A stretch of 53,845 nt of DNA, filler included, from Jimgerdemannia flammicorona (taxonomy: Eukaryota): NCBI GenBank assembly GCA_003990765.1. It is 2 parts of 2 records of this genome, joined end to end, with 100 filler letters (N's around TTAATTAATTAA, not from the genome) between each part and the next. Parts side by side here need not be neighbours in the genome. Positions count along the whole stretch, not along the records: positions 26,976 to 53,845 come from RBNJ01000687.1; 1 more part is not named here. One strand, 5' to 3'. Shown in pieces: positions 20,880 to 50,233 of this stretch (positions are counted from its first letter, which is position 1; every line of letters begins with the position of its first letter). The notes beneath the pieces were generated by a model. That model did no database searches, was not told the origin of the DNA, and was given only the letters and a program-made list of their open reading frames with translations. Both the position numbers and the translations under genes were made by a program.

Positions 20880-23692
20880 ATGACCACCGAGATCTATACC
20901 CACATCCGCGCTGACATTTGGAATGCCATTGTCAACCAAGCTACACCCCCTCTGCCCCTTATGAATATCCATAGCCTAGCACCCCTCTACTTCGTGGAAG
21001 CCCAATGGAATGCTCTGAACATGCTTAGCGAGGCCCACCAAATCAGACAAATTTCAAGCTACTACTAGATTGGCTGCCTCCTAGAAGACATGGTCAAATA
21101 CCACCATGATACAGACATTACCCAGATGTCTCAACACTAGAAGCTCATCGCCCGCAAACATTGAGAACTCTTCTATGAGTACAGTACCATTATTCCCCGC
21201 CTCCGAGTTACTACCAGCGAAATGGTTGCTACTCTGTCCTATGGCCAAATCGATAACATGATATAAGAACTCAACCACAAGTACCTTAAGTATGTCGAAA
21301 CCACAGACAGAACCTTTCCACACCCCAATGATCAAATCCTGCAAATGCCCCAAGTTGGATACGCCATGAAGGACATCTATTTTTTTTTTTTTTTTTTTTT
21401 TTATAGTCACTTGGACTCCACCTTTATTACCAGTCTATGAATAAATATACATCATTTCGACCCACTATCCAATCCCCACAGGGGGGCCCCTCCCTACTTC
21501 CTCATGAATGAAAATCACCCTTTCACCAACTACCCCCACTCTCCCCCCACTTTGCCTACAGATTTTCTCCACCAAGTGGTGCCTCCGACCACCCCGCATC
21601 CCCCAACCCAGCCACCAGCCTGTTAAGGTATCTTCCATAAGCCTATGCCATCACAGCAGCTGGTTCCAAGCTCTGCCTCCTCCCATCCTCAAAAACAAAT
21701 AGTCAATGACTGGCCAGCCCCACCCAAATTGCCAAAGCCCAACCTAAAGTAAGCCACTCCTTCCCTATCCCCCCTACCAATCTAACCCTCAAGTCCTCCC
21801 ATTGCCTCCGTACTTCATCACTCCTACCCCGTACCCCTAAGCAATCCCCAATTGTCTGCCAAAATTCCCCCAACACCTCACACTCTCCTAGCCAATGTTC
21901 TGGCATCTGTATATAACCCCCCTCCTGCCCTACATTATGGCACTCCTCACAGTTGAAGCAACCCCCTACAACCAGGTGCCCTGAGCGAAAATTGAGTATA
22001 ACATTTCTCCGCAGCATGTGCCACCAGACCACCCAGTACTTTGGTGGCAGCCATGCTCTCACTGCAGTGCTCCAGGTCCAAATACTCTGCCAGTTCCACT
22101 CTTTGCCAATTCCAACTCCTTGCCAACCACTAGGTCACAGATCCTGGCCTGGTCCCCTTTGGCATTCCATTCTATCACCAATGTCGAACTCAACTAAAGG
22201 AGCACCACCTAGTAGTATGTGGTCCCATCTCTACATCGCCGGGTCCCAATCCTCCTCACCTTCATTCCCCTGCCAACAAATACCAATGCAGTGTACTCCT
22301 TCTGCAATTCCCCACCAAAATCCTTTATATCATAGTTGGGCAGTGTTCTGAAGCCCAACCAAGGAGAGGAGATCACCAGTTGAGCCCCTTGGCGATGCCC
22401 ACCTCTCCCATAACTTCTGTAACAGAGGAACCCATCCACCTCCTCTCAACTCCACCGCCCTCTTCAGCCACCATGCTCTCAAGCAGTGTAACCATTTTGG
22501 GAAGTCAACCAGCCCAAGACCACCTCTTGCCACTAGTAGGGACAAGGTCTCCCAACTAATCTGACTCCGCCTGCCAGCCCAAATCTATCCCTTCGCTGAC
22601 TTCATCAATCTCTTCACTACTCAGGCTGGGAAGTCCAGATGATATGCCAGGTACCACAACTTTGGCAGCCAGTAGACATTCAAAATCAAGACCCACCCTG
22701 CCAGAGAAAAATGTCTTCCCCCCCAACTCCGCAGAGTCTCCTCCCAGATTCCAATCCTCTGCTCCCACCAAAGCTTGGGCAGAACTGACCCATAGACTGA
22801 CAAGTAGATACCCAAGTACTGCACTGCTTCACTGGTGGGGACAATTGTTCCTATAACCTCCCCTCCCACCAGGCTGTTACCAAGCACCATCGTCTCACAC
22901 TTATGCCAATTTAGCTTAGCTCCAGAATGCTCCTCATACCACTCCATAGTCCTCTTGAGCTCCTCAACATCAGCAATCGAACCCAAGCCCACCACCATGT
23001 CATCAGCAAAGGCCCCAACCTTCCATCCTATGCCAAAGACAGAGAGCCCCACTATCCTCTGCCTAATCCAGTCCATAAGCATGAAGGACATCTACGATAT
23101 AATCCACTTTGATGAAGACAAAGCAGAAGATAACGATCCCTCTGATGCCGACATGACCTCTAGCCAAGGATCTCTGCCAACCCTGATCACTCTACCAACC
23201 TTGCCAATGAACTTACAACAGTTCATAACTACATATGAGACTTATTGGGACAATGACCACTGGCATGAATACCAATCTGCATTCACCCCCGATTACTTCA
23301 ACTACAATGAAGAGACTGGAGAACACAACCTGTACCTTCAGACAACCCTCAAGATCGAATCAACCACTCCACCACCCAAGTATGAGCGACATGAACCACA
23401 GCCACCAGCATACTATAACCCCACAACTCACAGTACCATAACCTATAGAAGGTATGCAGACAGTGAATCCAATGAAAGTGAAGACAATACACCTATCCTT
23501 CGCCCACCAACACCTTATCCAGCATACAAGACAGACGATGCTATCCTGTGGGACAGAGACAAAGTTCCAATGTACTATTACCTCAGCAAACAAGGAGAAG
23601 TAATCCGCGAACCATTATTTCTAGATGACTACTTCATCAGAGATGATGCAATCAATGGTGATGTCATCAAAGACTATCCAGACAGCACCTAA
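20880..23692 (+). pseudogene. ~365-codon accessory ORF of element B, split by a LINE insertion
   Basis: MTTEIYTH..TPPLPL..IRQISSYY*IGCLLED..LIARKH*ELFYEY..IPRL..YAMKDIY; the frame continues DIIHFDED.. to 23692 once the LINE and one TSD copy are removed. Confidence 0.8.
21380..23079 (-). mobile_element. 5'-truncated L1/Tx1-like LINE (RT C-half, zinc finger, poly(A))
   Basis: Exact 15-bp TSD CATGAAGGACATCTA at 21365-21379 and 23080-23094; poly(T) 21380-21402; GAFADDM, YLGI, CFNCEEC..EHWLGEC; same family as 48190-53845. Confidence 0.96.
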
Positions 23693-24116
23693 ACCCATAA
23701 ATAGCCTAACAGTCATAGTATAGTTAGATTAGCCTTATACAATGTAACTGTGAACTGACTCAGCAGTCAGACGATCTCTTGACATGTCAGATCACACTTG
23801 TACTATATGACTGCATTCCGACTCAGCAAAGCACTTAGTGCTATATCCATATTCAGCATAGTCCAGATAGCCCCTCACTAGTATAAATATTTCCTCCCCC
23901 AGACCTCAGAATCTCAGACTTGAATACACAAGAACATTCCTGAATACTTCCCCACAAATATCCCTTCACACAAATACTCCTAGTATAGCAATATCATGAA
24001 TAGCGAATAAACCTATTTAATAACCCATAAACTACTCTTAAGTAAATCTGCTCTCTGTTAGGTCCCACTCCTAACCCTATCACGAAATTTCCTAATTGGG
24101 TATTGTCTGTAGCAAT

Positions 24117-26310
24117 ATGCCAATTCAACTAAGCTGGTCTTAGTTTCTTGAACTTCCTGAAATATGGAAAATCCTGAATATCCAGAACTAGTCCGAAAAA
24201 GGACTTTGGTTGAGACGTCAATCTGATCTTGAAATCAATAAGTATAGAGGACGTACTCCATACGAAATTGATCTTGACCATAAGAAAACGGTCTTCCAGA
24301 ATATCCAGAACCTCCAGAAAACCCTTCCAGAACTACGTAATGGTTACCTTAAAAAGCAACCCTCTTACAACTTGATAGCAGCGGTTCACAATCCAATTCC
24401 ACTTCAAGATGCTTCCTCACCCTGCTACAAACCCTTCCGAGAATTCCTACAAGTTGGTATAAAGCCCAACCTCTGAACTGGAATTTATCCTGAACTATCT
24501 GACAATCTGGAGAGAATTGAACCTGACGTACAAGGACAATTTGACCTCCACACCTGCAACAAGTGGGATAAACTTCATTCAAAGAAAGAAGTACTCAGGT
24601 TAAACCAGCAAATAGGGGAAACCCTATTCACCGAACTCCTTGCACTACACCCAGCAAGTCAAGATGAAGAAGGTCTTATTGAAGCCTTCTTTACTCTTCT
24701 CAACAAGAGTTTTGTCAGCTCCACAAATCCGAGTGACCTAGGACAACCAGCAGCAGTCTTTCTAGCCTTAGTTCCTCACAAAGCCCAAGCCTCTGTAGCC
24801 AAGTGGCTCAACTCTACCAACTTTCACCACACCAGGACCAAGACTGCCTTATACTACTGATTCCAGAACAGCAAGGCCCATCATATCCTTAAAGAAGAAG
24901 CAAGAGAAACCCTTCATCAACTACCTGACCCCGAACCTGAAGCAGGCCCTGCTACAGCCCTACCTGAATCTGAAACTAATACTGAACCTGAACTTGACTT
25001 TGAATTAAGTCTGTCTGAAATCAGATATACAACTGATTCTGTCTACTTTGATGCCGAGCAAACCCAATTACACGGGGACCAAACTGAAGAAGAGGAGGAG
25101 TATCTCAGTGAATTCGATCCCAGATATACCACCGAAGGAGAAGCACCTCCATCAGGACAGAATACACCTACTCAGCAACAAACAGCTACCTATCAAGCCC
25201 TTACTCCAGATCCACAACTACTACTCCAGCAACTTACACAGACCCAAAGAACCCCATCACACTCTGCACCAGTACCTCAAGTAGTACCAGTAACACCACT
25301 ACCAGCAGTCTAACCACCTCCAGTAAACAACATGGCAAACCAACAGATTCTAGATCTCACAGCCCAGGTAGCCATAATGGCAGCAACCATTACTGCCTTA
25401 GCTGAACAGACCCAACCTACCAAAAATCTGAGCCTACCTATCTTCAATGGTACTGCACAAGAAGTCCAAAGCTTCATTAGTGTAGTTGACACCAACTTTG
25501 AAGCCAATTAATGGACTAATGAGCGAGTTGCTGACTGCATTCTGATAAACAATCAAGACCACACTCTGGAACAACTCTTTGCTACCACTACAGCCTATGT
25601 CCGCCGAGTTGTTATGACCTGCCGAAGAATGGTGGCGAACCCTTCCTGAAAAACCCCTCATATGAGATACCTGACCTGCAGTAGTTGCTCAGAATGTAGC
25701 AAACAATGCCCCAGGATATGGAGCCCATCCTGCAGCCCCTGGACTCAAACAACTCATGATTGCCCAATACTGCAGTGAAACCATGATCGCTGAATCTCGA
25801 GTAAAACTCTGCAACCTCAAATTTGATATACATGGCAAAGAAGAATTTGAAACCTTCTGTACAAAACTTGAGTCACTCCTGAACACTGTTGGCCTAGGAT
25901 ACATTGCCAATGATGAAGCATGAAATGGTACAAGAGTAGACCATTTATTCGATGCTCTGCCTGAATGGCTTACTAGAAAAATCTGAGAACAAGGCCGCCC
26001 AGTTGGTTGTGATCACCAACAATGGTGCCTGGCAAGAATCAAGACTATGGTCAAGTGAATCCTAACAGCTGGACCAATTCTGCCCCAAAGGCAATTCAAT
26101 AACAAGAAAAAGACTTGGACCAAGAAAGAAGAACTCAAGCATGAAGCATCTCAAGCTCCCTCCATATCCACCTCTTGGACACCCAGAAATCCTGAACCCA
26201 CCCAGCCCAGTACCTTCAAGAAACTTACCGAAGGCGAAAGGAATGAACTTCGAAGAAGCGGAGCATACTTCTATTGCCGAAAGACAGGACACATGGCCAG
26301 TGCCTGCCCT
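24117..26310 (+). pseudogene. gag: gag of element B with ~405-codon N-terminal extension
   Basis: ATG 24117 is in frame with MANQQIL at 25332; knuckle AYFYCRKTGHMASACP at ~26263-26310; scattered stops. Confidence 0.75.
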
Positions 26311-26391
26311 AACCGAAAACCCTGAACAGCAACACGAGCAACTGTTACCACTCTGCACCACCTCAACAACCTGACCACCAGAACACTAGAC

Positions 26392-26793
26392 TTTGTCAAG
26401 TTAAGACAAACTGCTAAGGCCCCAACCAAAGGAAGTCAAAAAGCAGCCGGATATGACCTGTATGCAGCTGAAGAAGCTACAGTCTCCAACCGAGAAGTCA
26501 AACAAGTCTACACAGGAATCAGTATCCAAATCTCTGAAGGACATGTTGGAAGAATATGCTGTCGCAGCAGCCTAGCACTGAAAGGACTCTCAGTAGAAGG
26601 AGGAGTCATTGACGAGGATTACACAGGCGAAATTATTGTCCTCATCTGAAACTACAGTTGGACACTCTTCAAGATCCCTATTGGTTTCTGCAATGCCCAG
26701 ATCATATTCAAAAAAATCGAGTCAACTCTGACAGTCAAGGAAGTCTCTGAACTACTGCCCACCATCCGAGGATCCAAAGGATTTGGCTCATCA
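26392..26793 (+). pseudogene. dut: dUTPase fused in frame directly after the gag zinc knuckle (element B)
   Basis: AAGYDLYA, RSSLA, EGGVIDEDYTGEI, NAQ, RGSKGFGSS; one TGA inside. Confidence 0.96.
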
Positions 26794-26875
26794 AACAAGG
26801 CCCCAGCACAACTTACCATGAGCAAAGAAGAACAATTCTACAAGAAGATCGAAGATGGATATGTACCAAGTGGCT

Positions 26876-26975
26876 NNNNNNNNNNNNNNNNNNNNNNNNN
26901 NNNNNNNNNNNNNNNNNNNTTAATTAATTAANNNNNNNNNNNNNNNNNNNNNNNNNNNNNNNNNNNNNNNNNNNN
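26876..26975. other. Artificial scaffold gap / six-frame-stop linker
   Basis: 44 N + TTAATTAATTAA (26920-26931) + 44 N = 100 nt. Confidence 0.95.
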
Positions 26976-27859
26976 GACCTGAGGGAATTCCTGGCAGAAG
27001 AGGTTTCTTATTTTATATTCTTACTATATCCAGAGATATTCAGTAGTGATAGTGATCCTTGTTTCTATTTTATGGCAGTAGAGGATAAAGTAGTAAAGGT
27101 CACCAGTACTCAGGTTGAGGCTAGGAGTCCTTCTGGTGCAGGTCCTCATAGCTCTCCTGATGTCTTAAAATATTTTTTCTTAAACTGAGAAGTCCTGGTA
27201 GTTTCTGGACCTTGAGGTTTGGTGAGTGGTAGACATTTTATTTATAGTGAGTCTTTGAACTATTTTAGGATTTTGTAAGTCTTGTTTAAGTTGCTACTAC
27301 TGTGGTTTTTTAGTTCTTCTTTTATATTTCTTGAGATGTCTATCTTATAGTTATGATGACTCATAGTTGGTCATCATTGCTCATCTTATAGCCTAAGTGA
27401 GTCATACTATATGATCATCTTATACTCTAATCTGGTAACTTGAAAGGAAAGACTGTCTTCTGTAATGATATTATCATTCTGTTACATCTTTCTCCTGAAT
27501 AAGAATCTTCTCTTGAATATCCTTATTCATTGATCTAGTTTGAAAAATTTGCTAATTCCATAACCTCTGACAGAGGGTCAAAAAGTGGTGTTTATAGACT
27601 GGTATCTTTCTTATATATTTTGGTATAATGGTGAAGAGTCACTTTCTTTATATAGAGCAAGGGCCTGATTCTGATCTTAACTAATCAGTTGATGGTTCAA
27701 ACTTCTCTGACTTCAAAAGTCTTACAAATAAGTAGTTGCTGATACTATATCCCTTAGAGAATAGTTCAGACAGATTGCCTACTAGTCATGAGACATACTG
27801 TTATAATTTACAGACTAGAATCTCATGGGTGGTCATCATATTTTACTTCTCTTATATAG

Positions 27860-30320
27860 ATTCATAGTACTTCTTAAGTCTGTTCCTATATATTGTAGTA
27901 GATAGTATGGTCTCTGAGAGTTTTCTAAGCCAGAAGGTAGTTCTTTTAATATCTTACATATAGAAAGGTTCTTCCCATTTAGGCTCTAGTTTTTATAACT
28001 ATGTATGAGGTTTCTACCATATTTCAATATAGTAGAATCTTTTCTCCAATTTGAATGAGTTTTAGGGTCTTGTGATTATTTTTTACATTCTTTCTTATTA
28101 ACACTTATAACTTGATAATATAATCTTCTATCTTCTTTCTGATTTGGCATAGTCTCTAGATTTTTGAGTCAATCTATCACTAAGTTAGATCTAGATTTGT
28201 AGCTGAGGTTCCATTAGAATCTTCTTCTCCAAAGAGTAGTTCTTTTGGAGTAAAGTGTATACTCTGTAACTATATATCTCATAAGATAGAGAGGGTAATT
28301 GAGAGGTAGTTATTCCAATTCTCATATATATCTGAGATCTTGGTCAGAATATTCTTGAGGGTCTTATTGGTTCTTTCTATCTGTCTATTTCCTTAAGAGT
28401 GATATGCAGTAGTCTTGATATGCTGAATCTTGTATTTCTGATATATTATTTTATAGAATCTGTTGATAAATTCTGTACTGTAGTTTGTGGTAATTTGTCT
28501 TGATATCTTATAGCAGTAGATGATTTCTTGGTATAAGAAGTTAGTAATAAAGAGAGCATTGGCTTCTTATAGTACTCCTGCTTCTATCTATTTGATAAAG
28601 AGATCTACAATAACTATAATATAGTAGTTTCTTAATAGAGTTACTGGTAGTAGTCTAATAATATCTATTGTGATGTGGTGGAAGGGGATAGATTTGATTC
28701 TTGATAACCCAGATACTTGATCTTGCTGATCTTGTTTCTGTTTTTGATACTTGTCACACTCTTTGATAAATTGAAATAGATCTTCTTCTATCTTAGATTA
28801 CTATATGATTCTTCTTGTCTTGTTATATATATTGGTTCTTCCTAAATATCCTTGTTTGTATACTTTCTTCATTATTTGATACTTCTTATATTTAGATATA
28901 ACAAGCTTTTCTCTTTTTCTAAGTATGATGTTATCTAGTTCAAATTATTTCCAAGTCTGATTAATAATAGTAATAGTCCAGGGTTCAAGGTAGTTGGACA
29001 TCTTCTACTGTCCAAGATAGCTGATTAATCTATAGTATAGCTCCTTATTTATGTTGAATAGTCTTGATGAGGTTATTTCAGAGTATCCTTGAAAGTATAT
29101 CAGTATTGGCATTGGTTTTTTCTGAGTAGTATTTGATAGTACAGTCATACTCCTGCAGTCTATAGATCTATCTAGTATATATTCCTTTGGGATTTAGAGT
29201 ATGGAATAGCTAGATAAGAGTAGAATGATTTGTTTGAATAGTGTAGTATTTTCCAGCTAGGTAGTAGTAGAACTTGTCTACTATCCAAACTACTGCTAAG
29301 CATTCAAGCTTACATAACTTGTAGTTCTGTTCTACTTTGTATGTAAGTATCTCAGCTTACATAAGAGATGACATATTCATATCTATCTTTCTTCTGAGCT
29401 AGTACTGTTCTAAGTTCTATAACACTTACATCTATCTGCAGAATGAACTCTAGGTTCCAATCTGGTCTTCTGAGGATGGGTGCTTGGGTCAACCTGATCT
29501 TGAGTTTATTGAAGGTTTCTTGACATTCCTTGGTCCATTCAAATTTGATCTTCTTCTTCAGTAGCTTGTAGATAGATACTGCAATATTAGAGTATTCTTT
29601 GATGGATCCTCTGTAGTAAGAGGCTAGTCCAAAGAAGGTATAGACTTCTGTAGTTGTTCTAAGTCTTAGATAGGCTATGACAGCCTCAATCTTCATAGAG
29701 TTCATATAAATTTCAGTCTGGTTGATGATGTGTCCTAGGTAGGCAATTTTCTAAGCTGTAAACTTGTACTTTTTTGAGCTTGATGTAGAAGCCATGCTCC
29801 TTGAGATTCTTGAGAGCTAGCTGTATATGATTGATATATTTCTGTACAGTATTGCTAAAGATGATCATATCATCAATATAGACAAAGAGTCATTTCCTGA
29901 TTTCATTACTGAAAACTCTATTCATTATTTGCTGAAAACTTATTAGGGCATTGTACATTCCAAATAATATTTATAGATAAACATAGATGGTGTTAGATGT
30001 GATGAAGGCTAATTTCTCACTGGTATCTTGAGTGAGACAATCTGATAGAAGTCTGAGAATTGATCCAAGATGGTATAGTATTTGGCTTTACTTTTAAGAG
30101 TGATAAGAATTTTTTTAATATTTGGTAAGGACTATCTATCCTTTTTGGTGATTATATTGAGCTTCCTGTAATCAATACAGAGTCTTGGGGCAAACTCTCC
30201 AGGCTTGTTTCCTTTGGGGCAAGGATAATGGGTGAAGCCCAGAGACTAATAGCTTGCTTGATAATATTAGCTTCTTCTATTTTTTTGAGTTCTGCTTATA
30301 GCTATTCTCTATAGGCAGGT
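27860..30320 (-). pseudogene. pol: RT-RNase H-integrase of element C
   Basis: ORF 29352-29705 FFGLASYYR..LTQAPIL..FILQIDVS; CDKYQK; IDIIRLL; KLEPKWEEPF. Confidence 0.9.
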
Positions 30321-30556
30321 AGTATGGGTCTGACTTTCTGATAGATGAGCTTGATATTACTAGTATCAACTTTATGATAGTACTTGGGTTCTTGGTTTTG
30401 AATATCTCTGAAGTCTATAGCAAGTACTCCTTCATTCTGATGCAGAATCTTGAGAAGTTGTAAAGTTTTCTCCAATGGTATATGTATGCTTATTCTGGTT
30501 CTTGTCTTTCCTGTGCTCAAGTTTGGTAATCTTGGTAACAGTATAGGCTCCTCTTC

Positions 30557-30950
30557 CAGTAGATCTAAAGTCTTGTTCTTCTCTTTTAGTCTTGATGAGT
30601 TTGATGGCTTCAGTGATCTTAGGCTTCTTAACTTCATAGATCAGCATCTGGCCAATTCTATCATACTTCTTGACTTCAAATAGAGTAGTGGGATTGTGAT
30701 TCCTAACTATAAGAAAGATCTCACCAGTATAATTGAGGTCAATAACTCCTCCTTCAACTGAGATTTCACTCTTGATCAGACTGCTCCTAGTTTTGATAAT
30801 TCTGATATAGTTCTTTAATAACTTGACTCCAATTCAAGTACCAAATAGAGTGGTAGTCTGTGGTTCAAGGATATCATCTTAGATACTGACAAGGTCTATT
30901 CCTATTCTTATATTCTGAGATCTTAGCTTCAGGGTAAAACTTCTTGATCT
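30557..30950 (-). pseudogene. dut: dUTPase domain of element C, between PR and RT
   Basis: TRSSL, EGGVIDLNYTGEIFLIVRN, DRIGQML, REEQDFRSTG (RG.QGFGSTG). Confidence 0.92.
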
Positions 30951-33900
30951 TGAGAGTAATGTCTAGTTCTTATTTCTCCTCATTATTACTATCAGCTTGA
31001 AGCTCTGGAGGCTGGTCATCTTCTTCAGCTTTCTTTTTTACTTCAACAGCTTCTTACTTATACCTTTGTTGATGGATTTTTCTGACTTTACTGATATAGG
31101 ACCAGCAGTTATTTAGGTATTTGGAGCAGTATATTCTAGCACCATGGGGACATCTTTCTTGAGGAGTATAGCTATTGATGATCTTGTTATATCACTGCTC
31201 ATCTGTGAGCTTAGTTGTCTTACTCTTATTCTTATACACCAAGTACATAAAGACTTCTGTGTCCTCTTTATCTCATTCCTCCATGTCTGATAGTACTCCT
31301 TTGTGGATATTGATAGAGACTCATATCTTTCTTCCTCTATAGTTGATCTATATCTTCTAGTCATTGAGGTCAATAATAGCCTTGGTCTTGTGAAGCCATT
31401 GATTATTAATGAGGATGTCATTGTTAGTGGTATTTGTAATAATCATATCTACTGAGATGATAGCTCTTTCAATCTTGATGGAGATTTCTTAGATCTTGTC
31501 TAGAGAGGTAGCTTGTATACTATTTGCTATAACATAGACCATTTTGGTAGATTCTTCAATGTTCCAGCCTAGGCAGTCAATTGTCTTCTTACTTATGAGG
31601 TATCCTTTAGTACTGGGATCAATGATAGCATCAAAGATACAATCTTCAATCTGATATTAGATATAGGCTGAGGTCTTGTACTAATCTTCAAATTCTTTAT
31701 CTGAGTCTTCTTGTTCATCTTTTTGTATATTGTGAGCTTCTATGATCTTATACTCTTGGTTCTTGACAGTAGTTGTAAGTCCTACCCTCAACTGCTGTCT
31801 GAAGGTGGGAACTTCTGCTAGTTGTCCAAAAGTAGTATTAACCTTCTGTTCCTTAAGATTCTTGTAGATATTATACTAATGGATCTTGATCTTATATAGC
31901 TTCTGTTCTTTCTTGCTTTTACTTTCTTCTGAGACTGGAGTAGTACCTTTAATAATTTTGTGGGCAGCTTCATCTAACTCTATGTCTTGATTAATATTCT
32001 CAGATTGGGTCTTACTTTGAATAATAATAATTGAGGTCTTTTTTAGTCTTTCAACTGACTTGCTATTATCCTTCTTATCATAGGGCTTGGACTGGATTTT
32101 GGTATCTTTAGTAATAAGGTAGAATTCAGGCTTCTTATAGTATTCTTCATCATTAGTATCACTAATCTCCTCAATGACTACTACATTGGTTTGTTCTCTG
32201 GTTCTGGTAATATTACTTAGTTGAGCTCTATATCTTATTTTGGTCATGCAATTCTTTGCATAGTGGCCTTCTTCTCTATATTTGAAGCATATAATGGTGT
32301 ATTCCTCTATAGTTGCTGTAAACTTCTATACTGGTCTCCTGTTGACACTTTATACTTCTCTAATAACATCACTAAGATATACAGTTATCTTGACAAACTG
32401 CTGGGTGAGTTTCTCTACTGGATCAGCTTTGGTCATCTTGGAGGTAGGTGGAGATAGTTGTCTATTGAGAGCTGTGATGAGTATGATATTGGTTAGCTTT
32501 GGTAGCTCTATCTTGATGCCAGTTATCCTTTTCATTGAATATTTAGCAGGGTATCTGGTAGTTCAATATCTCTGTACAAAGACCATTTTCTGGTCAAATG
32601 TCAGAGCAACTGGAGTAGACTAGATTGCTAGAGCAATTTCATAGTAGACTCCTTTTAGAAAGATTGAATCAGCTATCTATTCCTTAAGGACATCATCATA
32701 GCTAGCCAAGATAATCTAGTGGTAGATTTGAGTATAGAATAAGTTGAGGTCTTTATTGAGTCCTTGGCAGATAGTATTAAGTTATTCTTAGAGAACTTGC
32801 TTGATCTCTTCAGTATAGTATATAGTTCTGAGGAAGTTCTTTATGTTGGTAAGTTTGACTGCACTATTATCAGCAATGGTGGTTATATTGAACTTATCTC
32901 TGATAGATCCTCTGAGGTTGATAGATAGAAGGGCTAGTTGTGCTTCAATACTAAGAGCTCATATGGTGGCAAATTGTTCAAAGTCTTCAATGAAAGTCAA
33001 GATTGACTCTTCAGTAATAAATCTATAGAATGTGGAGAGACTTGTTTCTATCTTGTCTTAAATTCTTATAGGAGTAACTCTTATAGTTAGAGTAGTTGTT
33101 GTGGTGATTATTTATTATTCAGCTTGAAAGTGAGTGATCCTAATGATATTATCAGTCAATGGGTACCAAGTTGTCACATAGTAGGTACTAAGTTCTCCAA
33201 GTATATCAGATTCTCTTCAAGGTATATCTCTTAGATCAACTATAAGTTTTTATAAGCAAGTTCTGTTGGAGTACCTTCTCAAGATCTTATAGTCCTTAAA
33301 CTTCTTATCTTTAAACTATTCTGTTATCTCTTAAATTTACTTATATAGAATTGAGTAGAGAACTGAAACTTTTGCACTCTTAAGTAGTTGAGTACTTGAA
33401 TACTTGAGTGTTTTAATACTGACTTTATTTTAAAGAAATGAGAGGGGTATTTATACAAAATATAATTCAATAGTTGCTAAGATATAAAGCTAAATATAAA
33501 ATCTAATAATTAAATAAGATATTTGAATATAGAAAACTTCAGATTATAAGTACAAATTTGAGTATATATATAATTGGTTATACAAAATCAGAATTTTGAA
33601 TAATTTCTAACTGTTATATAAGATCAGAATACCAGAACATTCAAGTGTTCAAACAAATAGTTATATAAATAAATTAGAGTAAAATATTCAAAATTCTAGA
33701 GACTTTGTCTTTATTACTGTTATCAAGACTAGAGATTAGAAATAGAATGTCTTTGAAGAAAATAAGGTCAGCAAACATTTCTGTTTTATTTATTTTATAT
33801 GTGTCAATTAGTAGGAAAATATCATTGCTAGTGATATTATTATATTAAATAGCAGCAGGAAGAAGATCAGAGGCTCTTTAATCTATGATATTTTCTTCTA

Positions 33901-34752
33901 CAAAGTAGGAGACAAAGGTGGGATCTTAAGGGAATCTGATCTGGATACTGGGGCCTTAGAATAATAAGATTAATTCTTACAGAAATTGATCTAGATTGTC
34001 CTTGAGAATGAGATTCTAGAACTCTTCTATCTCATTACTTTTAAGAGTAATGGTGAATTAGATTTCTGTGGCCACTATGGCCTCTAGTATATTCATATAG
34101 TAGGCTGACAATTTCTTGAAGTCTGAGACTTTGGTATACTCCAAGTTAGAGATTGACTAAGGTATATGCCTAAAGACCTGATGGATCTTTTTGATTACTC
34201 TTAATTCATATACATCTATAAAAGTGGTATCTTGTATCTTTAGAGACTGGTCTGAGGGAATTTCCAGTAGAGAAGATTTCTTATTTTGTATTTCTGCCAC
34301 ATCCAGAGATATTCAGTAGTAGTAGTGATTCTTATCTCTATTTTACAGTAGTAGAGGGTATAGTGGTAAGGGTCACCAGTACTCAAGTTAAAGCTAGGAA
34401 TCCTTCTAGTGCAGGTCCTTATAGCTCTATTGATATCTTGGAATATCCTTTCTTGGACTGAGAAGTCTTGGTAGTTTCTGGACCTTGCAGTTTGATGAGC
34501 AGTAGATATTTTATTTATAGTGAGTCTTTTGAACTATTTTGGGATTTTGTGAGTCTTGTTTGCATTACTGCTGCTGTAGTTTCTTAGTTCTTCTTTTATA
34601 TTTCTTGAGATTTGTAATAATCATAACTCATGGTTTATTATCATTACTCATCTTGTAGTCTGGGTGAGTTATGCTATATGATCTTCTTATACTCTAATCT
34701 AGTAGTTTATAAGGTTCTGTGATGATGTTACTATTCTGAGATTACTATCACA

Positions 34753-34954
34753 ATATATAGCATATTTGTATCTATTATGTATAATTGATATTCCAAGAAG
34801 ATAGGATATATTATCCATATCTGTCATCTTGAATTTCTGATATAGTATTACCTTTACATCATTAATCTTACTTGCTATCTCAACCAGAATAATATCATCA
34901 ATTCAAATTCCTAGATATATCATTTCTAAGAATATATACAAGATATAAATATAT
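34753..34954 (-). pseudogene. Ty1/copia RT core fragment stranded between two gypsy insertions
   Basis: Minus strand MIYLGI*IDDIILV..VKVILYQKFKMTDMD..YLLGI; continues the copia relic beyond 39414. Confidence 0.85.
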
Positions 34955-37900
34955 TGTCACATAGTAGTTACTGAGTCCTTCAAATATGTCATATTCTCTC
35001 CAAGATGTATCTCTTAGACTAACCTCAAGTTTATTATAAGTAAGTTCTTATTGGAGTGCCTTCCCAAGATCTTATAGTTCTCAAACTTCTTATCTTTAAA
35101 CTGTCTTGTTATTTCTTAGATTGCTTGCATGGAATTGAGAGTAAGTAAACTGGAACTAACTTTATTTCAAAGGAAATAAGAGGGATATTTATACAAAATA
35201 TGATTTAATAGTTGCTAAGTTATAAAGCTAAATATAAATTCCAATAACCAAATAAAATACTGGAACATAGAAAACTACAGTTGTCTGTACAAGTAGTTGC
35301 ACAAGTTTAAGATATCAGTAGAATTTCAGTAGTACAGAAAAAGGATACCAGAAGAATTTTGAGTTACACAAAATCAGAATACTAGAAGAATAACAGTTAT
35401 ACAGGAAAAGGATTCTGTTAGAATCTGATGTTACTAAGAACTTAGAGCAGAAAGTTCAGGATCATGGAGGCTTTATTTTTATCACTATCAAGGCCAGAGG
35501 TTAGAGATAGGATGTCTTCAAAGGAGATGAGGTCTACAAATATTTTGTCTATTTTGTATACTTCATGTATCTCACATATATCATATAGGATGACATCATT
35601 GCTAATGATATTATCACATTTGGTGGCAGAGAGAACAAGGAGGTCTGGGGCTCTCCAATCTATAATATTCTCTTCTACAAAATAAGAAACAAATATAGGG
35701 TCTTAGAGAGGTCTAACCTGGATGCTGGGGCCTTGGAATACTGAGATCAATTGTTGTAGGAATTGATCTGGGTTGTCCTGGAGGATGGGATACCAGAAGT
35801 CTTCTACTTTATCACTATTGAGGGTAATAGTGGACTGAGCCTCTGTAGCCACCATGACCTCCAGTGTATTAGTGTGACAAGCTGATAGTTCCTTGAAGTC
35901 TGAGATCCTAGTATACTCTAAGTTGGGGATTGACCATAGTATATACCAGAAGATCTGATAAATCTTCTTTACTATCCTTATTTTATGTATATCTATAGAG
36001 GTAGCATCTTGAATCTCCTGGGGACTGATCTGAGGGAACTCCTGACAGAGGAGGTTTCTTATTTTATACTCTTGCTACATCCAGAGGCATTTTGTAGCAA
36101 TAGTGATTCTTGTTTCTATTTCACAGCAGTAGAGAATATAATAATAGAGGTCACTAGTACTCAGGTTGATACTAGGAGTTCTTCTTGTGTGGGTCCCCAT
36201 GGCTCTTCTGATGTCTTGAAATATCCTATCCTGAACTAAGGGGCCTTGGTAGTTCCTGGACCTTGAGGTTTGGTAAGCAGTAGGTATTTTGTTTATAGTA
36301 AGTCTTTAGAACTATTTCTGTGAGCTTTGTTTGGATTGCTGCTACTGTGGTTTCTTGATTCTTCTTTTATATTTCTTGAGATGTCTGTCTTATAGTTACA
36401 ATGACTCATAGTTGATCATCATTACTCATCTTGTAGCCTAGATGAGTTATGCTATATAATCCTCTTATACTCTGATCTGGTGACTTGTGAGGAAAGGCTG
36501 TCTCCTGTGCTGATATCATTATTCTGAGATCACTATTACATCTTCTTTCTGAATAAAGATCTTCTTGAACATCCTTATTCATTGGTCCAGTTCTGAAAAA
36601 TTTACTGATCCTATAACCTCTGACAGGGGGTTGAAAAGTGGTATTTATAAACTAATGTCTTCCCTATGTATTTTAGCATAATGGTGAAGGGTTACTCCCT
36701 TTATATAGAGCAAGGGCCTGATTCTGATCTTGACCAATCAGTTGATGGTTCAAACTCCTCTGGCTTCGAAAGTCTCATAGATGAGTAGTTGCTGGTACCA
36801 TATCTCTTAGAGAATGATCCAGACAGATTGCCTACTGATTATGGGACATACTGTTATGATTCACAAACTAGAATCTTATGAGTGATCATTATGTTTTACT
36901 TTTCTTATATAGGTTTATGGTACTTCTTAAGTCTGTTCCTGTATACTATAGTAGACAGTATAGTTATTGAGAGTTTTCTAAGCCAGAAGGTAGTTCCCTT
37001 GATATCTTGCATGTAGAAGGGTCCTTCTCATTTGGGCTCCAGTTTTTGTGACAATGAGGCTTCTACCATATTCCAATATAGTAGGACCTTTTCTCTGATT
37101 TAGATGGATTCTAGGGTCTTGTGATTCTTCTCTGCATTCTTTCTTATCAGTACTTATGACTTGATGATGTAATCTTTAGCCTTCTTTCTGATTTGGTATA
37201 GTCTCTGGATTTCTGAGTCAACCTATCTCCATGTTAGGTCTAGATTTGTAGCTGAGGTTCCATCAGAATCTTTTTCTCCAAAGAGCAGTTCTCTTGGAGT
37301 AAAGTATATACTCTGTGACTATATATCTCATAGGACAGAGAGGACTGTTGAGAGATAGTTATCCCAATTATTATATATATCTGAGATCTATTCTTGAGGA
37401 TCTTATTGGTCCTTTCTATCTGTCTATTTCCTTAAGAGTGGTATACAGTGATCTTGATATACTGAATCTTGTATTTCTGATATATTATCTTGTAGAATCT
37501 ATTCACAAATTCTGTGCTGCAGTCTGTGGTGATTTGTCTTGGTATCTTAAGGCAGCAGATGATTTCTCAGTATAGAAAGTTGGCTATAGAGAGAGCATTG
37601 GCTTCTTATAATGCTCCTGCTTCTATCCATTTGGTAAAGAGGTCTATAATAACTATAATATAGCAGTGTCACTAATAGTGGTTCAATAATATCTATTGTA
37701 ATGTAGTGGAAGGGGATAGGCTCAATTCTTGATAACCCAGGTATCTGGTCTTACTGATCTTGTTTCTTTTTTTGGTACTTGTCACACTCTTTGAAAAATT
37801 GGTACAGGTCTTTGGTCACTATCTAGTTCTTCTTATTTTGTCATATGTATTGGTTCCTCCTAGGTGTCCTTGTTCATGTACTTCCTTCATTACTTGATAC

Positions 37901-39414
37901 TTCTTATGTTTGAGTATTACAAGCTTTCCTCCTTTTTTGAGTGTGGTATTGTATAGTTCAAATTGTTTCCAAGTCTAGTTGATGATAGTGATTGTTCATT
38001 GTTTTAGCTTGAAAGTGAGGGATTCATCTTGAATTATTAGTCAATAGGTACTAAGTTATCACATAGTAGTTACTGAGTCCTTCAAATATATCAGATTCTC
38101 TCCAAGATGTATCTCTTAGACTAACCTCAAGTTTGTTATAAATAAGTTCTTATTGGAGTGCCTTCCTAAGATCTTATAGTCCTCAAACTTCTTATCTTTA
38201 AACTGTCTTGTTATCTCTTAGATTGCTTGTGTGGAATTGAGGGTAAGTAAACTGGAGCTGACTTTATTTCAAAGGAAATATGAGAGATATTTATATAAAA
38301 TATAATTTAATAGTTGCTAAGTTATAAAGCTAAATATAAATTCCAATAACCAAATAAAATACTTGAATATAGAAAACTATAGTTGTCTGTATAAGTAGTT
38401 ATATAAGTTTAGGATATCAGTAGAATTTCAGTAGTATAGAAAAAGGATACCAGAAGAATTTTGAGTAATATAAGATCAAAATACCAGAAGAATAACAGTT
38501 ATATAGGAAAAGGATACTGGTAGAATCTGGTGTTACCAAGAACTTAGAGCAGAAAGTTTAGGACTATAGAGGCTTCATCTTTATCACTATCAAGGCCAGA
38601 GAACAGAGACAGGATATTTTTGAAGGAGATGAGGTCTGCAAATGTTTTGTCTATTTTACATACTTTGTATATCTTGTATATGTTATATAGGATGACATCA
38701 TCACCATGTTCAGCAGCAGAGAGGACAAGGAGGTCTGGGGCTCTCCAATCTATGACATTCTCTTCCACAAAATAAGAAACAAATGTGGAGTCTTAGAGAG
38801 GTCTAATCTGAATGCTGGGGCCTTAGAATGCTAAGATCAATTGTTATAAAAATTGATCTGGGTTGTCCTGGAGAATGAGATACCAGAAGTCTTCTACTTC
38901 ATCACTATTGAGAGTAATAGTGGACTGAGCCTCTATGGCCACTATGGTCTCCAGTATATTGATGCAGCGAGCTGATAGTTCCTTGAAGTCTGAGATCCTA
39001 GTATACTCCAAGTTAGGGATCAATCATAGTGCATGCCAGAAAATCTGATAAATCTTCTTTGCTGTCCTTATTTTATAAAGATAGTATCTTGAATCTCCTG
39101 GAGACTGGCCTGAGGGACCTTGGTGGTTTCTGGACCTTGAGATTTGGCAAGCAACAGACATTTCATTTGTAGTAAGTCTTTAGAACTATTTCTGTAAGCT
39201 TTGTTTGGATTGTTGCTACTGCAGTTTCTTAATTCTTCTTTTATATTCCTCAAGATGTCTGTCTTGTAGTCATAATAACTTATGGTTGATTATTATTACT
39301 CATTTTGTAGTCTGGATGAGTCATGCTATATGATTCTCTTGTGCTCTAATCTGATAGCTTACAAGGAAAGGCTGCCTTCTGTACTGATATCATTATTCTG
39401 AGGTTACTATTACA
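34955..39414 (-). mobile_element. Element D: internally deleted member of family C (LTRs 34955-36540 and 38057-39414; integrase retained)
   Basis: Two LTRs, flanking ATAT as a possible 4-bp TSD, PBS at ~38045-38056, PPT at 36541-36550; leader joins directly to the integrase N-terminus at ~37990. Confidence 0.92.
35442..36287 (-). pseudogene. ~281-aa accessory ORF encoded inside the family C/D LTR (best-preserved copy)
   Basis: 282 codons in one frame, only two in-frame stops, ATG>ATA (ATG kept at 27236 and 39161); CLWM*QEYKIRNLLCQEFP..KKIYQIFW..IPNLEYT..ELS; present in all four LTR copies. Confidence 0.85.
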
Positions 39415-42400
39415 ATATATATGAGTTAGTCTCATAATGCTTAAATATATTATCTAAGAGATATTTGTTAATTTTTTGATTTTACAGCCTTACTACTTAT
39501 TTGATACTATAGAGACCTTTTTATAATTTGTATATGAGCTTGTTTTGCTTATTATTATATAGTTTATATTCTGTATAGTTGATAGATATATAGCTCTATA
39601 TCTATATCACTATTTAAGAAGACTGTCTTAATATTTATTTAATAGATTTCATAGTTATATTTGGCTCTAATTATAAGAAGTATTCTAAGTGAAGTAAGTT
39701 TGAATATTGGAAAAAAAGATCTTATTATAGTCTATACTATATCTTTATAAATACTCCTTTATTACAAATTGAGTCTTATACTACTCTATACTGCTATTAC
39801 TATTATATTTAATTTTATATACTCAGTGAGATTCTATTACTTGTCAATTTTCTGAGAGAGAGACTAAATCTCATATATCATTCTCAATGAACAAACTATA
39901 CTTCTCATTTATAGCTTTTTACCACTCTTTCTTATCATCTGAGTGTATGGATTTATTATAGTTTACTGGTTCACCAGTCATTGCTATATAGGTATACTCA
40001 TAGATATAGTTCATATAATGTTATTTATAATAAGATATCTTAGACTAATCTCAATAACCTCCTAAATCTACTTTGACTTTATTTTGTAGTCTAGATTTGT
40101 ACTTTTTTTTTATCTTTCAGAGAGATATCCTCATCATTGTTCTCATCTATAATTTTCATAATTCTTGGCTGTGATAGCCTCATTGGTATATATATAGATT
40201 GTACTAGTACTGGTATGAGTGCTATTCTGCTTATCTTTGAAGTTAACATAGATATTATTGGCTGTATTATTGGATTAGATATAGAGATAAGACTTTTTAT
40301 ATAAATTTCTAAATTTTACAAGAGATAACTATATGGCATTTCTGTGGGTTCTATTATCTATATACCACTCTATTATATCTAAAGAATACATATATGATTA
40401 TCTGCTTTAAGCTCAAATTTGCCTCTATTACTATCTTTATTCAGAATATAAGCCTCTCTTTCAAATATCTATAAGTGTGAGATATCAGACTTAGATCTAC
40501 TTTATAATTCTTCAGAGATAAGATTACTATCATTTCTGAATTATTTATCAGATCTATCAGATCTATCAGAATTCTTACTTAGAGCTCAAGAAATATAACA
40601 ATTTCAGATATATACTATTATATTCACTACTTTAGCCCAGAAGAAGTATAGTAAGCCAGCTATATTTATTATTATTCAAGCTATCTCTACTATCATTTGG
40701 TTAAGCACTCTGTCACATATTCTGTTCAGATATATAGAGAGCTATTATAGAGTATTAGATATTATACTTCTTCAAGAAGTTTTTGAAGGTTTTATTGATA
40801 TATTTCTTACTATTATCTGAGCATAGAATTTATATCTTATATTTTATTTTGTTCTCTATAATTGTCTTAAATTCTTAGAGTTTTTCAAATATCTCATTCT
40901 TTACTATAAAGAAGTATATATAGACTTTGTAAGTATAATTATCAATGAAGATAATATATAAAATACCTCTTTCTAGAATATATTGAAGTTTGTATAAGGC
41001 TGCAGATATCTATATATATCATATTGAGAATACTGACTGCTCACTTCATCTATTTCTAAAAAGATTACTGAGAAGTTTTGTTTATTGCACATCTATTACA
41101 AAAGCTGAAATCTGGTGATATATAGTTTGGTAATCTATATATAGTTTTACTCTTTATTATCTATTTTAAACTTATCTTACCAATATATTCTAAGTATTTG
41201 TACTATATATACTAAGTATCAGTCACTGTTATAGAATATATAGATAATATACTACTTGGCATACTGTTAATTGTATATAGATTCTCCCTTTTCAATATAT
41301 ATATTAGCTCCTTATTATTCTTTAGATTAATTATCATCACACTATTTGGGTATATATTTACTCTTTTATCTTCTTAAGCTATTATCTGGCCTATTGAGAA
41401 GAAGTTCTTATCTATATCTAGTATATATAGTATATTTATAAAGGTATCTGAGAGTTCATTGATATTTTCATATAGGTATATACTAACATTATTCTTACCT
41501 TAAGTATAAATAATATTATTATCACTTAATTTAATAGGTACAGAGTACTTAAACTTCTCACATATAGAGAATTACTCATAGTATACTATTATATACTATA
41601 TCATACTGAAATCCATAAGTCAGATCTCTTTACTATATATATATTAGTACTACTAGATATATAGCTTATATTGGCACTAGTACTAAAACTGATAAAACTA
41701 GTGATTGGAGTATTTTTTATCAGTGTAAAAATATTTTCCAAATTCACTTCTATATCTTTCTCTATATATAGATAGATTATTACTTATATAAAGAACAGAT
41801 CTCTACTATCTCTACTACTTTATTATAGTTGATATTCATGATATTTATCTATCTACTTTTTTTTTTTTTATAGTCACTTGGAATTTTACTTTATTATCCA
41901 ACTATCTATAACATATTACTAATATAAATATGCTCCTCACTCAATCTCTCTCAAAAAGTCTCTCTCTTTCTCACCATTTCTCTGAAATGCCACCAACTCT
42001 CCTGATATTCCAATCCTTCCCCCACTCTTTCTAGATTATCTCTACCAGTTACTGCTGATACCCCCTACTTATACCTCCACCCCTCTACCATCTATTCAAT
42101 ATAACTATCATCAGCCACTCCTATCTAGCTACTTTCTCCCCCAATGTCAACTGGTGTCCCCTCAAATATATAGAGCCAATGATCTGCTAGTCTAACCCAA
42201 ATTACCAATACCCATCCTAATATCAGCCACTCATCTCTCAACCCCCCCATTAGTCTTCTCTGGAGATTACCCCACCTCTCTCCTGCTATCAGCTCTGATG
42301 AGTGCACCTCCAACCACACCTCCACCTCTTTTAAAAAGTTTTATCTGTCTATATTACTCATCTTTTTCTTTCTTTTTACAGTTATAGTCCTACTCATAAT

Positions 42401-47816: not shown

Positions 47817-48180
47817 ATGATGAAAAAGTTGTCTACTGATATCTGAAACTATATCATCAGTGAGTTAAAGTCTAGCAAGAAAAACTAACAGATTGCATAA
47901 CAAATAAGGATTGGTATAGTAACTATGAAATGTATATGAATGGCAGAGTACATTGACATCAAAAAGCATATGAAATGAGGCTGCCTGCATAAGCTTTCTG
48001 TTTACAATGAGGTATAGGTTATTCATCAATGAGATATGAGTCCTTCATCAGGTGATGACGGGCAAGGCAGATACAGCTATCTCTTTCTCTTGTATAATTC
48101 ACATTATACCAACTTCAAGCAATGGTTTTCAACACAACTTGGAGAAAAGGTACTATAAAAATATCATCAAGTAAGAGTTC
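47817..48180 (+). pseudogene. Tc1-like transposase N-terminal HTH fragment
   Basis: MMKKLSTDI*NYIISELKSS..QIA*QIRIG..GCLHKLS (GRP.KLS)..VLHQVMTGKADTA; truncated by the adjacent LINE. Confidence 0.6.
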
Positions 48181-48253
48181 TGATGAGCATGCTGGGTTGA
48201 GTGGACATGGGGCTTTCAGCTGACAGAATGTAGGGAGGGGTTATGGCCTGGGA

Positions 48254-50233
48254 ATGGGGGCCTTTGGGGGGTTGAAGGATGGTAAGGGCTCTGGAGGTAG
48301 ATCAGTATCTGGTGGCAATGGGGGAAGGCCTGGCCCCTCAAGATTTGTGGACAAGGTGAAGGAGAGTGAGTGGCTGACTGGATCTAGGGCTGATATTGCT
48401 GAGGGAAAAGACAAAGTAAGCTTTGGGAGGGGAGGAGGTACTCAGGCTAGGGGTGGGAGCATAGGGGCTGGAGGTGCTGTGGCTGGGGGTGGGACTGCTG
48501 ATGGAAGTGTAATGAAGATTCAGGAAAAAAAAAGAGATGTGATGGCTGATGGCAGAGTGGGGCAGAGATTTTCAATTCGGAAGAGAGATCTGGCTGATAG
48601 TGTAATGGAGCTAGTGGTGGCACCATTGCTCAAGAAGTTAATTTCAGAGTTTGTGGCTATCTTGTGCTTCCAGGGCTTAGTAGTGATGGCAAGGATAGTC
48701 CTGGGGCTTGTCTCAAAGCAGGTGGCTGGGGCCATCTCGGTGAAGTTCCTAAAGGATCTGGAGGGGGTTGAGGTGGGCTTTGAGGAGACAGACCCACTGG
48801 AAGAGACTCTGAAGACTAGAGTGGTAGTTGGAGAAGTAGTGGTCTCTATGGTGCACTGTCTGAGATGGGACCCCAGGGTGGTGTAGCTGTTGGTAAAGAG
48901 GATGCCTACAGTGATGAAGGAGGAGACTAGGAGGAGGGTAGAGAAGGTGATGGTGGAGTATAGTAATGTGGTGGATATTGGCTTCCAGGTGTGGGAGGGG
49001 ACCTCCATCAGGATGGGTGATATGGATATCAGGATTAGACTGACTGGAAGAGAGGCCACAGAGAAGATGGGTGACTGGCTCTCAGTGTTGATGTGGGGGG
49101 CCTTTATCTGTAAGGTATTGAGAGTGAGAGAGAGTAAAGAGGAGGAGGAGAACTTGTTGGAGACTCTGGAGGAGTTGAGTGGTACTGTTGAGTAGAGGGT
49201 GAAGGTCTGGCAATTGTATGTAGAGTTGATACATCTAGAGATTATTGATGGGAAGTATATTCACACTGACAAGAGGCAGTGGGAGAGGGCTCAAGGGCAC
49301 AGGAGGTAGAGAGAGTTGCTGGCGAGCATGGAAGGAGGGGCTAAGATGAAGGCAGAGGGCCCTGAGAAGTCTGGGGGAGTGGAGGTGAGTATCTAGGCTA
49401 GCAAGAGAGGAGGAGATAGGGAGGAGGGCCTAGAAGGGGCTGAGAAGGTACCACTCAAGGACCCATTTGCTGATGGTACTTTTGAGGTCTGGGACCCAGT
49501 CGTGGATGATACTCCCCCTCTGATCAGATGGAGTCTCACTACAAGAGATTAGGTAGCAGAGGATGAGCTGATGTGGGGTACTCAGCAGATACACTTTGGG
49601 GTTCCTGATATGGCAAAGGGTGGACAGGTGGTGGCTGTTGGTGAGGATGAACTAGTGGATGTCCCTGAGGAGGGATGAGATGAGACTGCCAGTATAGGGG
49701 CTGATACCATGATGCTGGATGTGGGAAGACTGGGGACACCAGGAGGGAAGAAGGTGGGGAATCTACTATGGATGAGCAAGGTGATAGATAATCTCATAGC
49801 TGAGGAGTTGGGAGAAGTGGACCTGTGAGTGATGAGTGAGGAGCATTGGGCAGGGATTCTATATAGAGAGGGGGTGGTTGGGGCACTGAAGGCAGAGATT
49901 CTTGTGATTTTCCTAGAGGAGGAGGAATATGAGGTTGATAAGGTGAGAGAGGTGGAGCTGGCAGTTGTTGCTGGTGAGCAGGCTGCCTACTATTGGGCTG
50001 AGTGTCATGGTTTGCAACTCTGGCAGGAGGTATGTCTGGAGTATCATGAGGACTTCAAGGAAAAGGAGGATGGGGTGATGGCTGAACTTCTGGAAGGGTT
50101 GGAGGTACAGATGGCTGAAGAGAAGGTGCTGGCTGCAGAACATGACCTGAACTTGACACAGGAGGAGTTGAATGTGGATTTGCAGAGGCTGCAATTGATA
50201 ATTAACATTATTCCTAATGAACAGTACAACTAA
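48254..50233 (+). pseudogene. LINE ORF1 (Gly-rich N-terminus, Glu-rich helical C-terminus)
   Basis: Same-frame ORF pieces 48254-48886, 48890-49195 and 49829-50233 separated by stops. Confidence 0.75.

Follow-up and report, generated by a model that had tools for sequence, protein, structure and literature searches.

Analysis of a 53,845-nucleotide stretch of the genome of Jimgerdemannia flammicorona (assembly GCA_003990765.1; below, the window, in whose numbering all positions are given) revealed two elements of one Ty3/gypsy family whose long terminal repeats (LTRs) contain the remains of a true protein-coding gene. This accessory gene lies wholly inside the LTR, not between the LTRs, and was under purifying selection while it was LTR-borne; since insertion, it has decayed neutrally. 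We consider it probable that the LTR of this family carries a complete accessory gene, most likely in the U3 (unique 3') region, that comprises an open reading frame (ORF) of 270 to 290 codons preceded by a TATA box and by some 50 to 80 nt of leader.

A decayed protein-coding gene within the LTR

Self-BLAST and alignment of the repeat copies resolved four LTR copies (A to D) of one family, with pairwise identities of 72 to 87% and a length of about 1.59 kb, that are distributed over two elements, the minus strand being the sense strand of both. Element 2 is bounded by the 5' LTR C (38057..39414, 1358 bp), which has lost 206 bp corresponding to ORF codons 15 to about 83, and by the 3' LTR B (34955..36540, 1586 bp, TG...CA), the best-preserved copy; element 1 is bounded by the 5' LTR A (33172..34752, 1581 bp) and by the incomplete 3' LTR D (26976..27486). 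The original prediction, which was made from this DNA alone, had delimited the feature at 33172-39414, exactly the span from LTR A to LTR C, and its four LTR copies of about 1.6 kb are all present. The LTRs start with TGTAAT or TGTGAT and end with GTGACA (GTGATA, by decay, in copy C). Polypurine tracts directly abut both 3' LTRs, namely, AGAAAGAAGA before LTR B (36550-36541) and GGAGAAAGA before LTR D. A sequence resembling a primer-binding site (PBS), TTGGTACCCATTGAC (33155..33169, minus strand), is located 2 nt past LTR A, and its copy past LTR C (around 38040-38054) is decayed by transitions; ARAGORN detected no tRNA gene in the window. The 3' copies have the polypurine tract upstream of the accessory ORF, and the 5' copies carry the ORF ahead of the PBS.

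The frame is most complete in copy B, where it spans 282 codons (35442..36287, minus strand; LTR positions 254-1099 of 1586), starts with ATA and is interrupted by two internal stops (TAG and TAA), with no other damage. Copy A (33674..34509, minus strand) likewise has ATA at the start and carries eight stops and a 1-bp deletion, its other indels relative to B being of 3, 3, 6 and 3 bp. The ATG is kept in copy C (38544..39161, minus strand), which contains four stops and deletions of 206 and 10 bp, and in copy D (26976..27236, minus strand), which contains four stops in 86 codons before it runs into a stretch of N. An ORF of at least 100 amino acids starting with ATG is found in none of the four LTRs. 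The length of the frame had been predicted correctly, but the frame is intact in no copy; the ATG expected about 80 nt after the upstream TATA box is, in copy B, an ATA 84 nt on, and ATG occurs only in C and D. Of an ORF said to recur in all four LTRs, the first 14 or so codons do so, and the full length is present in two (A and B). The frame is nevertheless far more open than expected by chance: in copy B, it contains three stops including the terminal one, whereas the remaining sense frames have 18 and 26, and not one of 2000 shuffled sequences had as few as two.

Database searches were run with P0001, the conceptual translation of the copy B frame through its stops, which were replaced by X. 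It matches five proteins with E values from 3e-107 to 1.5e-36 and identities of 61 to 69%. An exhaustive HMMER search with the same query yielded six hits, of which four were accepted, P0003, P0009, P0010 (38% identity) and P0011 (34% identity); the other two, P0012 and P0013 (repeat proteins of 709 and 831 amino acids; E 1.7e-6 and 1.5e-4), align only with query residues 117-158, in five to six stretches, and were judged spurious. In a profile search, the family comprises nine clusters, all from environmental contigs of 0.6 to 4.8 kb in ENA and JGI. Intact ORFs encode P0002 (271 amino acids, E 3e-107), the protein of contig L001 (291 amino acids) and P0011 (342 amino acids). The homologues have W at the position of the TAG of copy B and Q at that of its TAA, and their N-terminus, MP(A/P)x(R), aligns with the ATG that is retained in copies C and D; the stops and the lost start of copy B are therefore G-to-A and C-to-T changes. 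An intron around the shared TAA, which follows RPL, was considered and rejected, since the GT...TAG interval in B is 43 nt long, not a multiple of three, and copies A and C have AT in place of the GT of B; because the homologues have Q there, this TAA is read as a former CAA.

Only one homologue locus is available as DNA, the 1535-nt contig L001 from the second metagenome scan, the protein of which is only about 38% identical; the first metagenome scan, viral contigs and genome contigs yielded no homologue locus. Local alignments of the flanks of L001 with parts of the LTR, each judged against 200 shuffles, gave nothing significant; the highest z among the 20 comparisons was 2.6, reached once. 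The region itself is represented in a soil metagenome: a run denoted X1, which contained 6% of the words of the region, gave, at the DNA level, 1806 short contigs of 80 to 99% likeness that cover all 30 bins of 33171-39421, the ORF included. The summed word depth in X1 reaches several hundred, so that the element family seems to be abundant in some organism of the sample. Among the sequencing runs listed as containing words of the region, none is of RNA.

Substitutions that separate the two elements are biased by codon position. Between copies B and A, transversions at codon positions 1, 2 and 3 number 14, 2 and 14 (p 0.008), and transitions number 52, 46 and 85 (p 0.0007). At insertion, an element has identical LTRs, and the transitions that distinguish B from C, which accumulated after insertion of the same element, show no such bias (30, 26 and 33; p 0.66). 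The indels within the ORF between A and B are of 1, 3, 3, 6 and 3 bp; four of these five are multiples of three, compared with two of 12 outside the ORF (Fisher p 0.028). Transversion density between B and A is 30/833 in the ORF versus 39/452 in the downstream LTR. The codon-position bias and the in-frame indels between element lineages therefore indicate purifying selection while the gene sat in the LTR. Both signs are among those that the original prediction had proposed to look for. Together with the homologues, they bear out its description of a protein-coding LTR, except that the gene is decayed in every copy in the window.

Promoter-like motifs and alternative readings

The upstream candidate TATA box, TATAAAAG (TATA1; 36364..36371 in copy B, minus strand), was found where it had been predicted and is invariant in all four copies (39238-39245 in C, 34593-34600 in A and 27319-27326 in D); in copy B, it starts 84 nt before the start codon. 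In L001, the distance from TATAAAAG to the ATG is 80 nt, and the final 24 or so bases of its leader closely match those in the window. This resemblance is our sole comparative argument for a putative promoter, and it concerns TATA1 only. Downstream of the ORF stop, the short direct repeats mentioned in the original prediction proved to be a 33-bp tandem repeat in 3.1 copies (35311..35413, minus strand), possibly enhancer-like, that separates the stop from a second candidate TATA box and is conserved in A and C as well. The latter, TATAAATA (TATA2; 35186..35193 in B, minus strand; LTR position 1348), is kept in A, B and C (38288-38295 and 33448-33455 in C and A, respectively); in copy B, GTATAAATA is followed by a CT-rich block (35194-35170), as predicted. 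A candidate poly(A) signal, AATAAA (35161..35166 in B, minus strand; LTR position 1375), is kept in the same three copies (38263-38268 and 33424-33429 in C and A); it starts 27 nt downstream of the TATA2 start and leaves about 210 bp to the end of the LTR.

The positions of TATA2 (1348) and AATAAA (1375) are the basis on which the ORF is most likely assigned to U3. The progression from TATA2 through AATAAA to the LTR end, with the tandem repeat upstream, would fit a separate promoter for the genomic RNA. In active elements, TATA1 would drive a transcript, about 1.2 kb long, that encodes the accessory protein and ends at the AATAAA of the same LTR, and TATA2 would start the genomic RNA at or just past AATAAA; a genomic RNA with such a start would therefore escape polyadenylation at its 5' end, and the signal would be used only at the 3' end. 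The two-promoter layout proposed originally is thus compatible with the recurrence of TATA1 and its leader in L001 and with the geometry from TATA2 to the LTR end, but at the level of motifs only. Each insertion of the ancestral active element would have carried two copies of the cassette, one of which a solo LTR would keep; the claim that an insertion delivers two cassettes may hold for that ancestor but does not apply to this locus, where the copies are dead.

Alternatively, TATA1 could be the sole promoter, the ORF being part of a very long R/U5 (repeat and unique 5') region of about 1.2 to 1.4 kb and TATA2 an incidental motif in AT-rich sequence; the ORF would then stand as first cistron in the genomic RNA or in short transcripts that are polyadenylated prematurely. 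TATA1 is alone in being supported outside the family, through L001, and TATAAA occurs three to six times per LTR. We nonetheless regard a single promoter as unlikely. In cap-dependent translation, an upstream ORF hinders scanning ribosomes, and an ORF of 282 codons ahead of gag would block them; the genomic RNA would need to continue past the AATAAA of the 5' LTR; and the conserved TATA2, with AATAAA 27 nt on and the 33-bp repeat upstream, resembles a U3/R boundary.

There is a small chance that the gene is a passenger, that is, a host gene captured by the LTR with its own promoter and useless to the element, in which case L001, P0010 and P0011 would be host genes. In its favour, L001 has the TATA box and leader in common with the LTR and is otherwise flanked by unrelated sequence; the family is an orphan without any retroelement domain; and, as weak evidence, there are no pol fusions among proteins of 600 to 2000 amino acids. 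This possibility is opposed by the codon-position bias and the in-frame indels, which arose between two element lineages when the gene was already LTR-borne, and by the relatives in the soil run, which cover the whole region with the ORF in all 30 bins; no family member comes from an annotated genome source, all being from ENA and JGI. Capture and a function for the element are, moreover, not mutually exclusive. Finally, the notion that there is no gene, and that the open frame arose by chance or from the composition of AT-rich, strand-biased repeat DNA, can appeal to the skewed composition and to the lack of an intact copy, but it is refuted by the shuffles (0/2000 as open), by intact homologues with conserved blocks down to 34% identity and by the codon-position bias of the substitutions.

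Several observations weigh against a complete accessory gene in U3. Every copy in the window is broken, so that none here yields a protein, and the indel test counts five events only. The family is tiny, with its nine clusters, and its names go no further than 'hypothetical protein'; searches of Pfam, PDB and ESM Atlas gave no match, and the poor AlphaFold2 models reveal no fold. The putative expression cassette rests on the positions of motifs and on their conservation; TATAAA is frequent, at three to six occurrences per LTR, in this AT-rich sequence, and the LTR copies are closely related, so that the conservation of TATA2 weighs little. The LTR context is known from this window only, and the flanks of L001 match no part of the LTRs in it. 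Directly past the stop codon of L001, at 1252-1270, GGAGGGAGGA is followed by TGTAATAAG, an arrangement that resembles AGAAAGAAGA followed by TGTAATAG in the family described here; this purine run with TGTAATA after the stop could mean that, in that lineage, the ORF is internal and upstream of the LTR start.

The two elements, their decay and their surroundings

Element 1 (26976..34752, minus strand) is a decayed, near full-length Ty3/gypsy element in which LTRs A and D enclose an internal region of 5.7 kb (27487-33171). Pfam searches of three frames of this element, read through stops with X, identified RVP_2 (read-through residues 525-609), dUTPase (750-872), RVT_1 (1018-1139), RNase H (1212-1341; matched as RT_RNaseH/RT_RNaseH_2) and Integrase_H2C2 (1429-1480), and an ORF in the gag region (31876-32325) encodes a CCHC knuckle. 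The repeats are true LTRs of Ty3/gypsy elements with the order gag, protease (PR), dUTPase, reverse transcriptase (RT), RNase H and integrase (IN). The dUTPase domain (30432-30833, minus strand; Pfam E 1.9e-15) lies between the protease and the RT of the gypsy pol, a location that has also been described in the fungal Ty3/gypsy element PosPlaTy3-5 (PMC2864245). Rfam searches detected no RNA family anywhere in the window.

LTR D ends at 26976 against N(44)-TTAATTAATTAA-N(44) (26876-26975), which looks like an artificial linker with stops in all frames that joins two contigs; the truncation of LTR D is therefore a matter of assembly, not of biology. The GC-rich DNA to the left of the linker (21-26.9 kb) need not adjoin LTR D in the genome.

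Element 2 (34955..39414, minus strand), delimited by self-BLAST and LTR alignment, consists of LTRs C and B with an internal part that a deletion has reduced to about 1.5 kb. Its internal remnant (36541..38056, minus strand) is a fusion of the PBS and about 80 bp of 5' sequence with the last 1.44 kb, that is, part of the integrase and the polypurine tract; by self-BLAST, it corresponds to 27481-28980 of element 1, and Pfam recognizes rve (the integrase core) and Integrase_H2C2 in it. The 202-bp spacer between the elements (34753..34954, minus strand) is a fragment of a copia-type RT, the insertion target (Pfam RVT_2, E 3.8e-6, profile positions 153-211), and just upstream of LTR C, RVT_2 profile positions 54-100 are followed by 54 further residues, which extend to about position 154. 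The RVT_2 profile thus stops at about 154 before LTR C and resumes at 153 after LTR B, so that the copia gene is continuous across element 2, which fixes the outer limits of this element independently of the LTR alignment. Element 2 is a single clean insertion into a copia RT gene. ATAT stands at both of its ends as part of (AT)n sequence and is too simple to count as a target-site duplication.

Two gypsy elements of the same family thus occupy one copia RT gene (34753-34954 and 39415-40100), similarly oriented and separated by about 200 bp, and the junctions of both lie within (AT)n, which could reflect target preference or chance. Two diverged repeat pairs, with 67 to 74% identity, also flank the region studied: 8139-10824 with 39449-41663, which probably derive from the copia element into which the gypsy elements inserted, and 11335-14114 with 45947-43464 (inverted).

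The decay of the LTRs shows the signature of hypermutation resembling repeat-induced point mutation (RIP), that is, a great excess of transitions, with a preference for CpA to TpA; together with the dUTPase-bearing gypsy type, it points to a fungal host. Copies B and C differ at 166 of the 1359 aligned sites, by 159 transitions and seven transversions; at 110 of the 159 transition sites, the C of the C-bearing copy is followed by A, compared with 105 of 394 for unmutated C, and the commonest dinucleotide differences are CA/TA (44) and TG/TA (38). The four copies are dead: once inserted, they were inactivated by deletions and by RIP-like hypermutation, C to T and G to A. The contigs from the soil run differ from the window in both directions (A>G 156, T>C 110, G>A 115 and C>T 71), and the excess of A>G and T>C fits the copies in the window being the more mutated ones. 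The CpG observed/expected ratio is 0.00 to 0.03 in 15 of 18 3-kb bins and in the LTRs, and 0.16 to 0.31 in three bins at 18-27 kb; the depletion in the 15 bins is far stronger than CpA-biased RIP alone would give.

Two blocks of the window, 21000-27000 and 48000-53845, stand out by a GC content of 0.42 to 0.51, a very strong strand asymmetry, with GC skews that reach -0.45 and +0.50, and a CpG observed/expected ratio of 0.02 to 0.31. They contain related RT fragments of the non-LTR type (RVT_1 at 22621-23091, minus strand, and 52109-52714, plus strand); 21682-23047 matches 53653-52288 in inverted orientation, and C is depleted on one strand in these blocks.

The predicted protein and its place among known systems

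The accessory protein, which belongs to an orphan family, is predicted to be soluble; its N-terminus is basic, its core is predicted to be helical and its C-terminal tail is acidic. None of the four accessory proteins examined contains an apolar run of the signal or membrane type. The net charge of the first 45 residues is +4 to +8 in three of these four proteins and +1 in P0011, and that of the last 45 to 90 residues is -12 to -13. The conserved core corresponds approximately to residues 60-215 of P0002, and the tail motifs DLIxF (in one or two copies) and (I/V)LNF are present in every full-length member. Pfam searches with a single protein and with all 10 members of the alignment returned sub-threshold noise only, in the form of GLF, CPSase_L_D3 and ATG5_HBR, the last of these in three of 10 members with a best E of 0.028; none was retained. 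PDB searches by sequence and by profile gave no usable match, and in ESM Atlas the best feature score was 0.83 with a TM (template modelling) score of at most 0.33, all under the thresholds. AlphaFold2 models built from alignments of 10 and 12 sequences, with a mean pLDDT (predicted local distance difference test) of 43.6 and 36.0, respectively, are both unreliable.

The basic head and the acidic tail with its hydrophobic motifs lead us to guess, tentatively, at a role in regulation or as an adaptor, such as that of a transactivator with an acidic tail that would act on the LTR promoter; it would then be comparable to the accessory genes that complex retroviruses have at their 3' end. A further-reaching possibility, to which we give little credence, is that of a 'complex retrotransposon', in which a fungal Ty3/gypsy lineage would keep a self-contained regulatory gene in its LTR, complete with promoter, ORF and poly(A) signal, and the product would activate the second promoter, that for the genomic RNA, or bring in a host factor, by analogy with the foamy-virus Tas and its internal promoter. 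If that were true, each solo LTR would stay an autonomous gene, able to affect other copies in trans or to become domesticated by the host.

Genes in or overlapping the LTR, specifically U3, are known from a few retroviruses, such as sag of mouse mammary tumour virus (MMTV) and nef of lentiviruses. The MMTV LTR is longer than 1.3 kb, and its U3 ORF, sag, has about 300 codons and encodes a type II membrane glycoprotein; the accessory genes tas and bet of foamy viruses are located at the 3' end and have a second, internal promoter in env, and the lentiviral nef overlaps U3. The family described here resembles MMTV in that a long LTR, and within it most likely U3, contains an ORF of about 300 codons, so that the gene is present in every LTR, but the accessory protein lacks a hydrophobic segment and the element is a Ty3/gypsy element without env. 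The nearest analogues of the proposed two-promoter logic, and of a possible acidic-tail transactivator, are tas and bet; these genes and nef, however, overlap U3 only in part, whereas here the promoter, the ORF and the poly(A) signal would all be located in the LTR. Searches of Pfam, PDB, ESM Atlas and protein databases detected no sequence homology to Sag, Nef or Bet. In MMTV, an ORF in the 3' LTR has been reported to control the endogenous superantigen (PMC2118998).

Among retrotransposons, a likeness can be drawn with additional ORFs (aORFs) of Ty3/gypsy elements, namely those of plants, ORF0 of Retrosat2 and brtn of Boty, which are also orphan, lineage-restricted and fast-evolving extra ORFs. 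Judging by the title of the work of Zhao et al. in 2011, brtn is reportedly antisense. The aORFs are internal to their elements (and brtn is antisense), whereas the ORF described here is in sense and wholly in the LTR, and thus is duplicated at both ends. Another partial parallel is provided by the Cassandra elements of plants, terminal-repeat retrotransposons in miniature (TRIMs) that carry a 5S RNA gene inside the LTR: an independent transcription unit is duplicated with each insertion, but it is an RNA gene of RNA polymerase III in plants, whereas a protein-coding cassette for RNA polymerase II is proposed here. The dUTPase-bearing fungal Ty3/gypsy elements (PosPlaTy3-5 of Postia placenta, elements of Phanerochaete and Tmt1 of Tuber) are similar to ours in having that domain, which in PosPlaTy3-5 likewise lies between PR and RT. 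The available portion of the text on PosPlaTy3-5 mentions no LTR-borne gene, and in a figure legend an 'add. ORF' without known function is named (PMC2864245). ORF0 of Retrosat2 has been described upstream of gag-pol (PMC3485330), and a review of plant aORFs does not mention an LTR location for any of them (PMC7264820). A full-text literature search, outside of which most subscription journals lie, found no account of an LTR retrotransposon whose LTR contains a protein-coding ORF.

The present analysis defines a new orphan protein family that, beyond this locus, is so far found only in environmental contigs. If the LTR indeed carries a selected gene with its own promoter, this layout would have arisen outside of retroviruses, and the dose of the gene would be doubled with each insertion. 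Solo LTRs would then survive as free-standing genes, which would change the way in which solo LTRs are annotated and would open a route from transposon to host gene.

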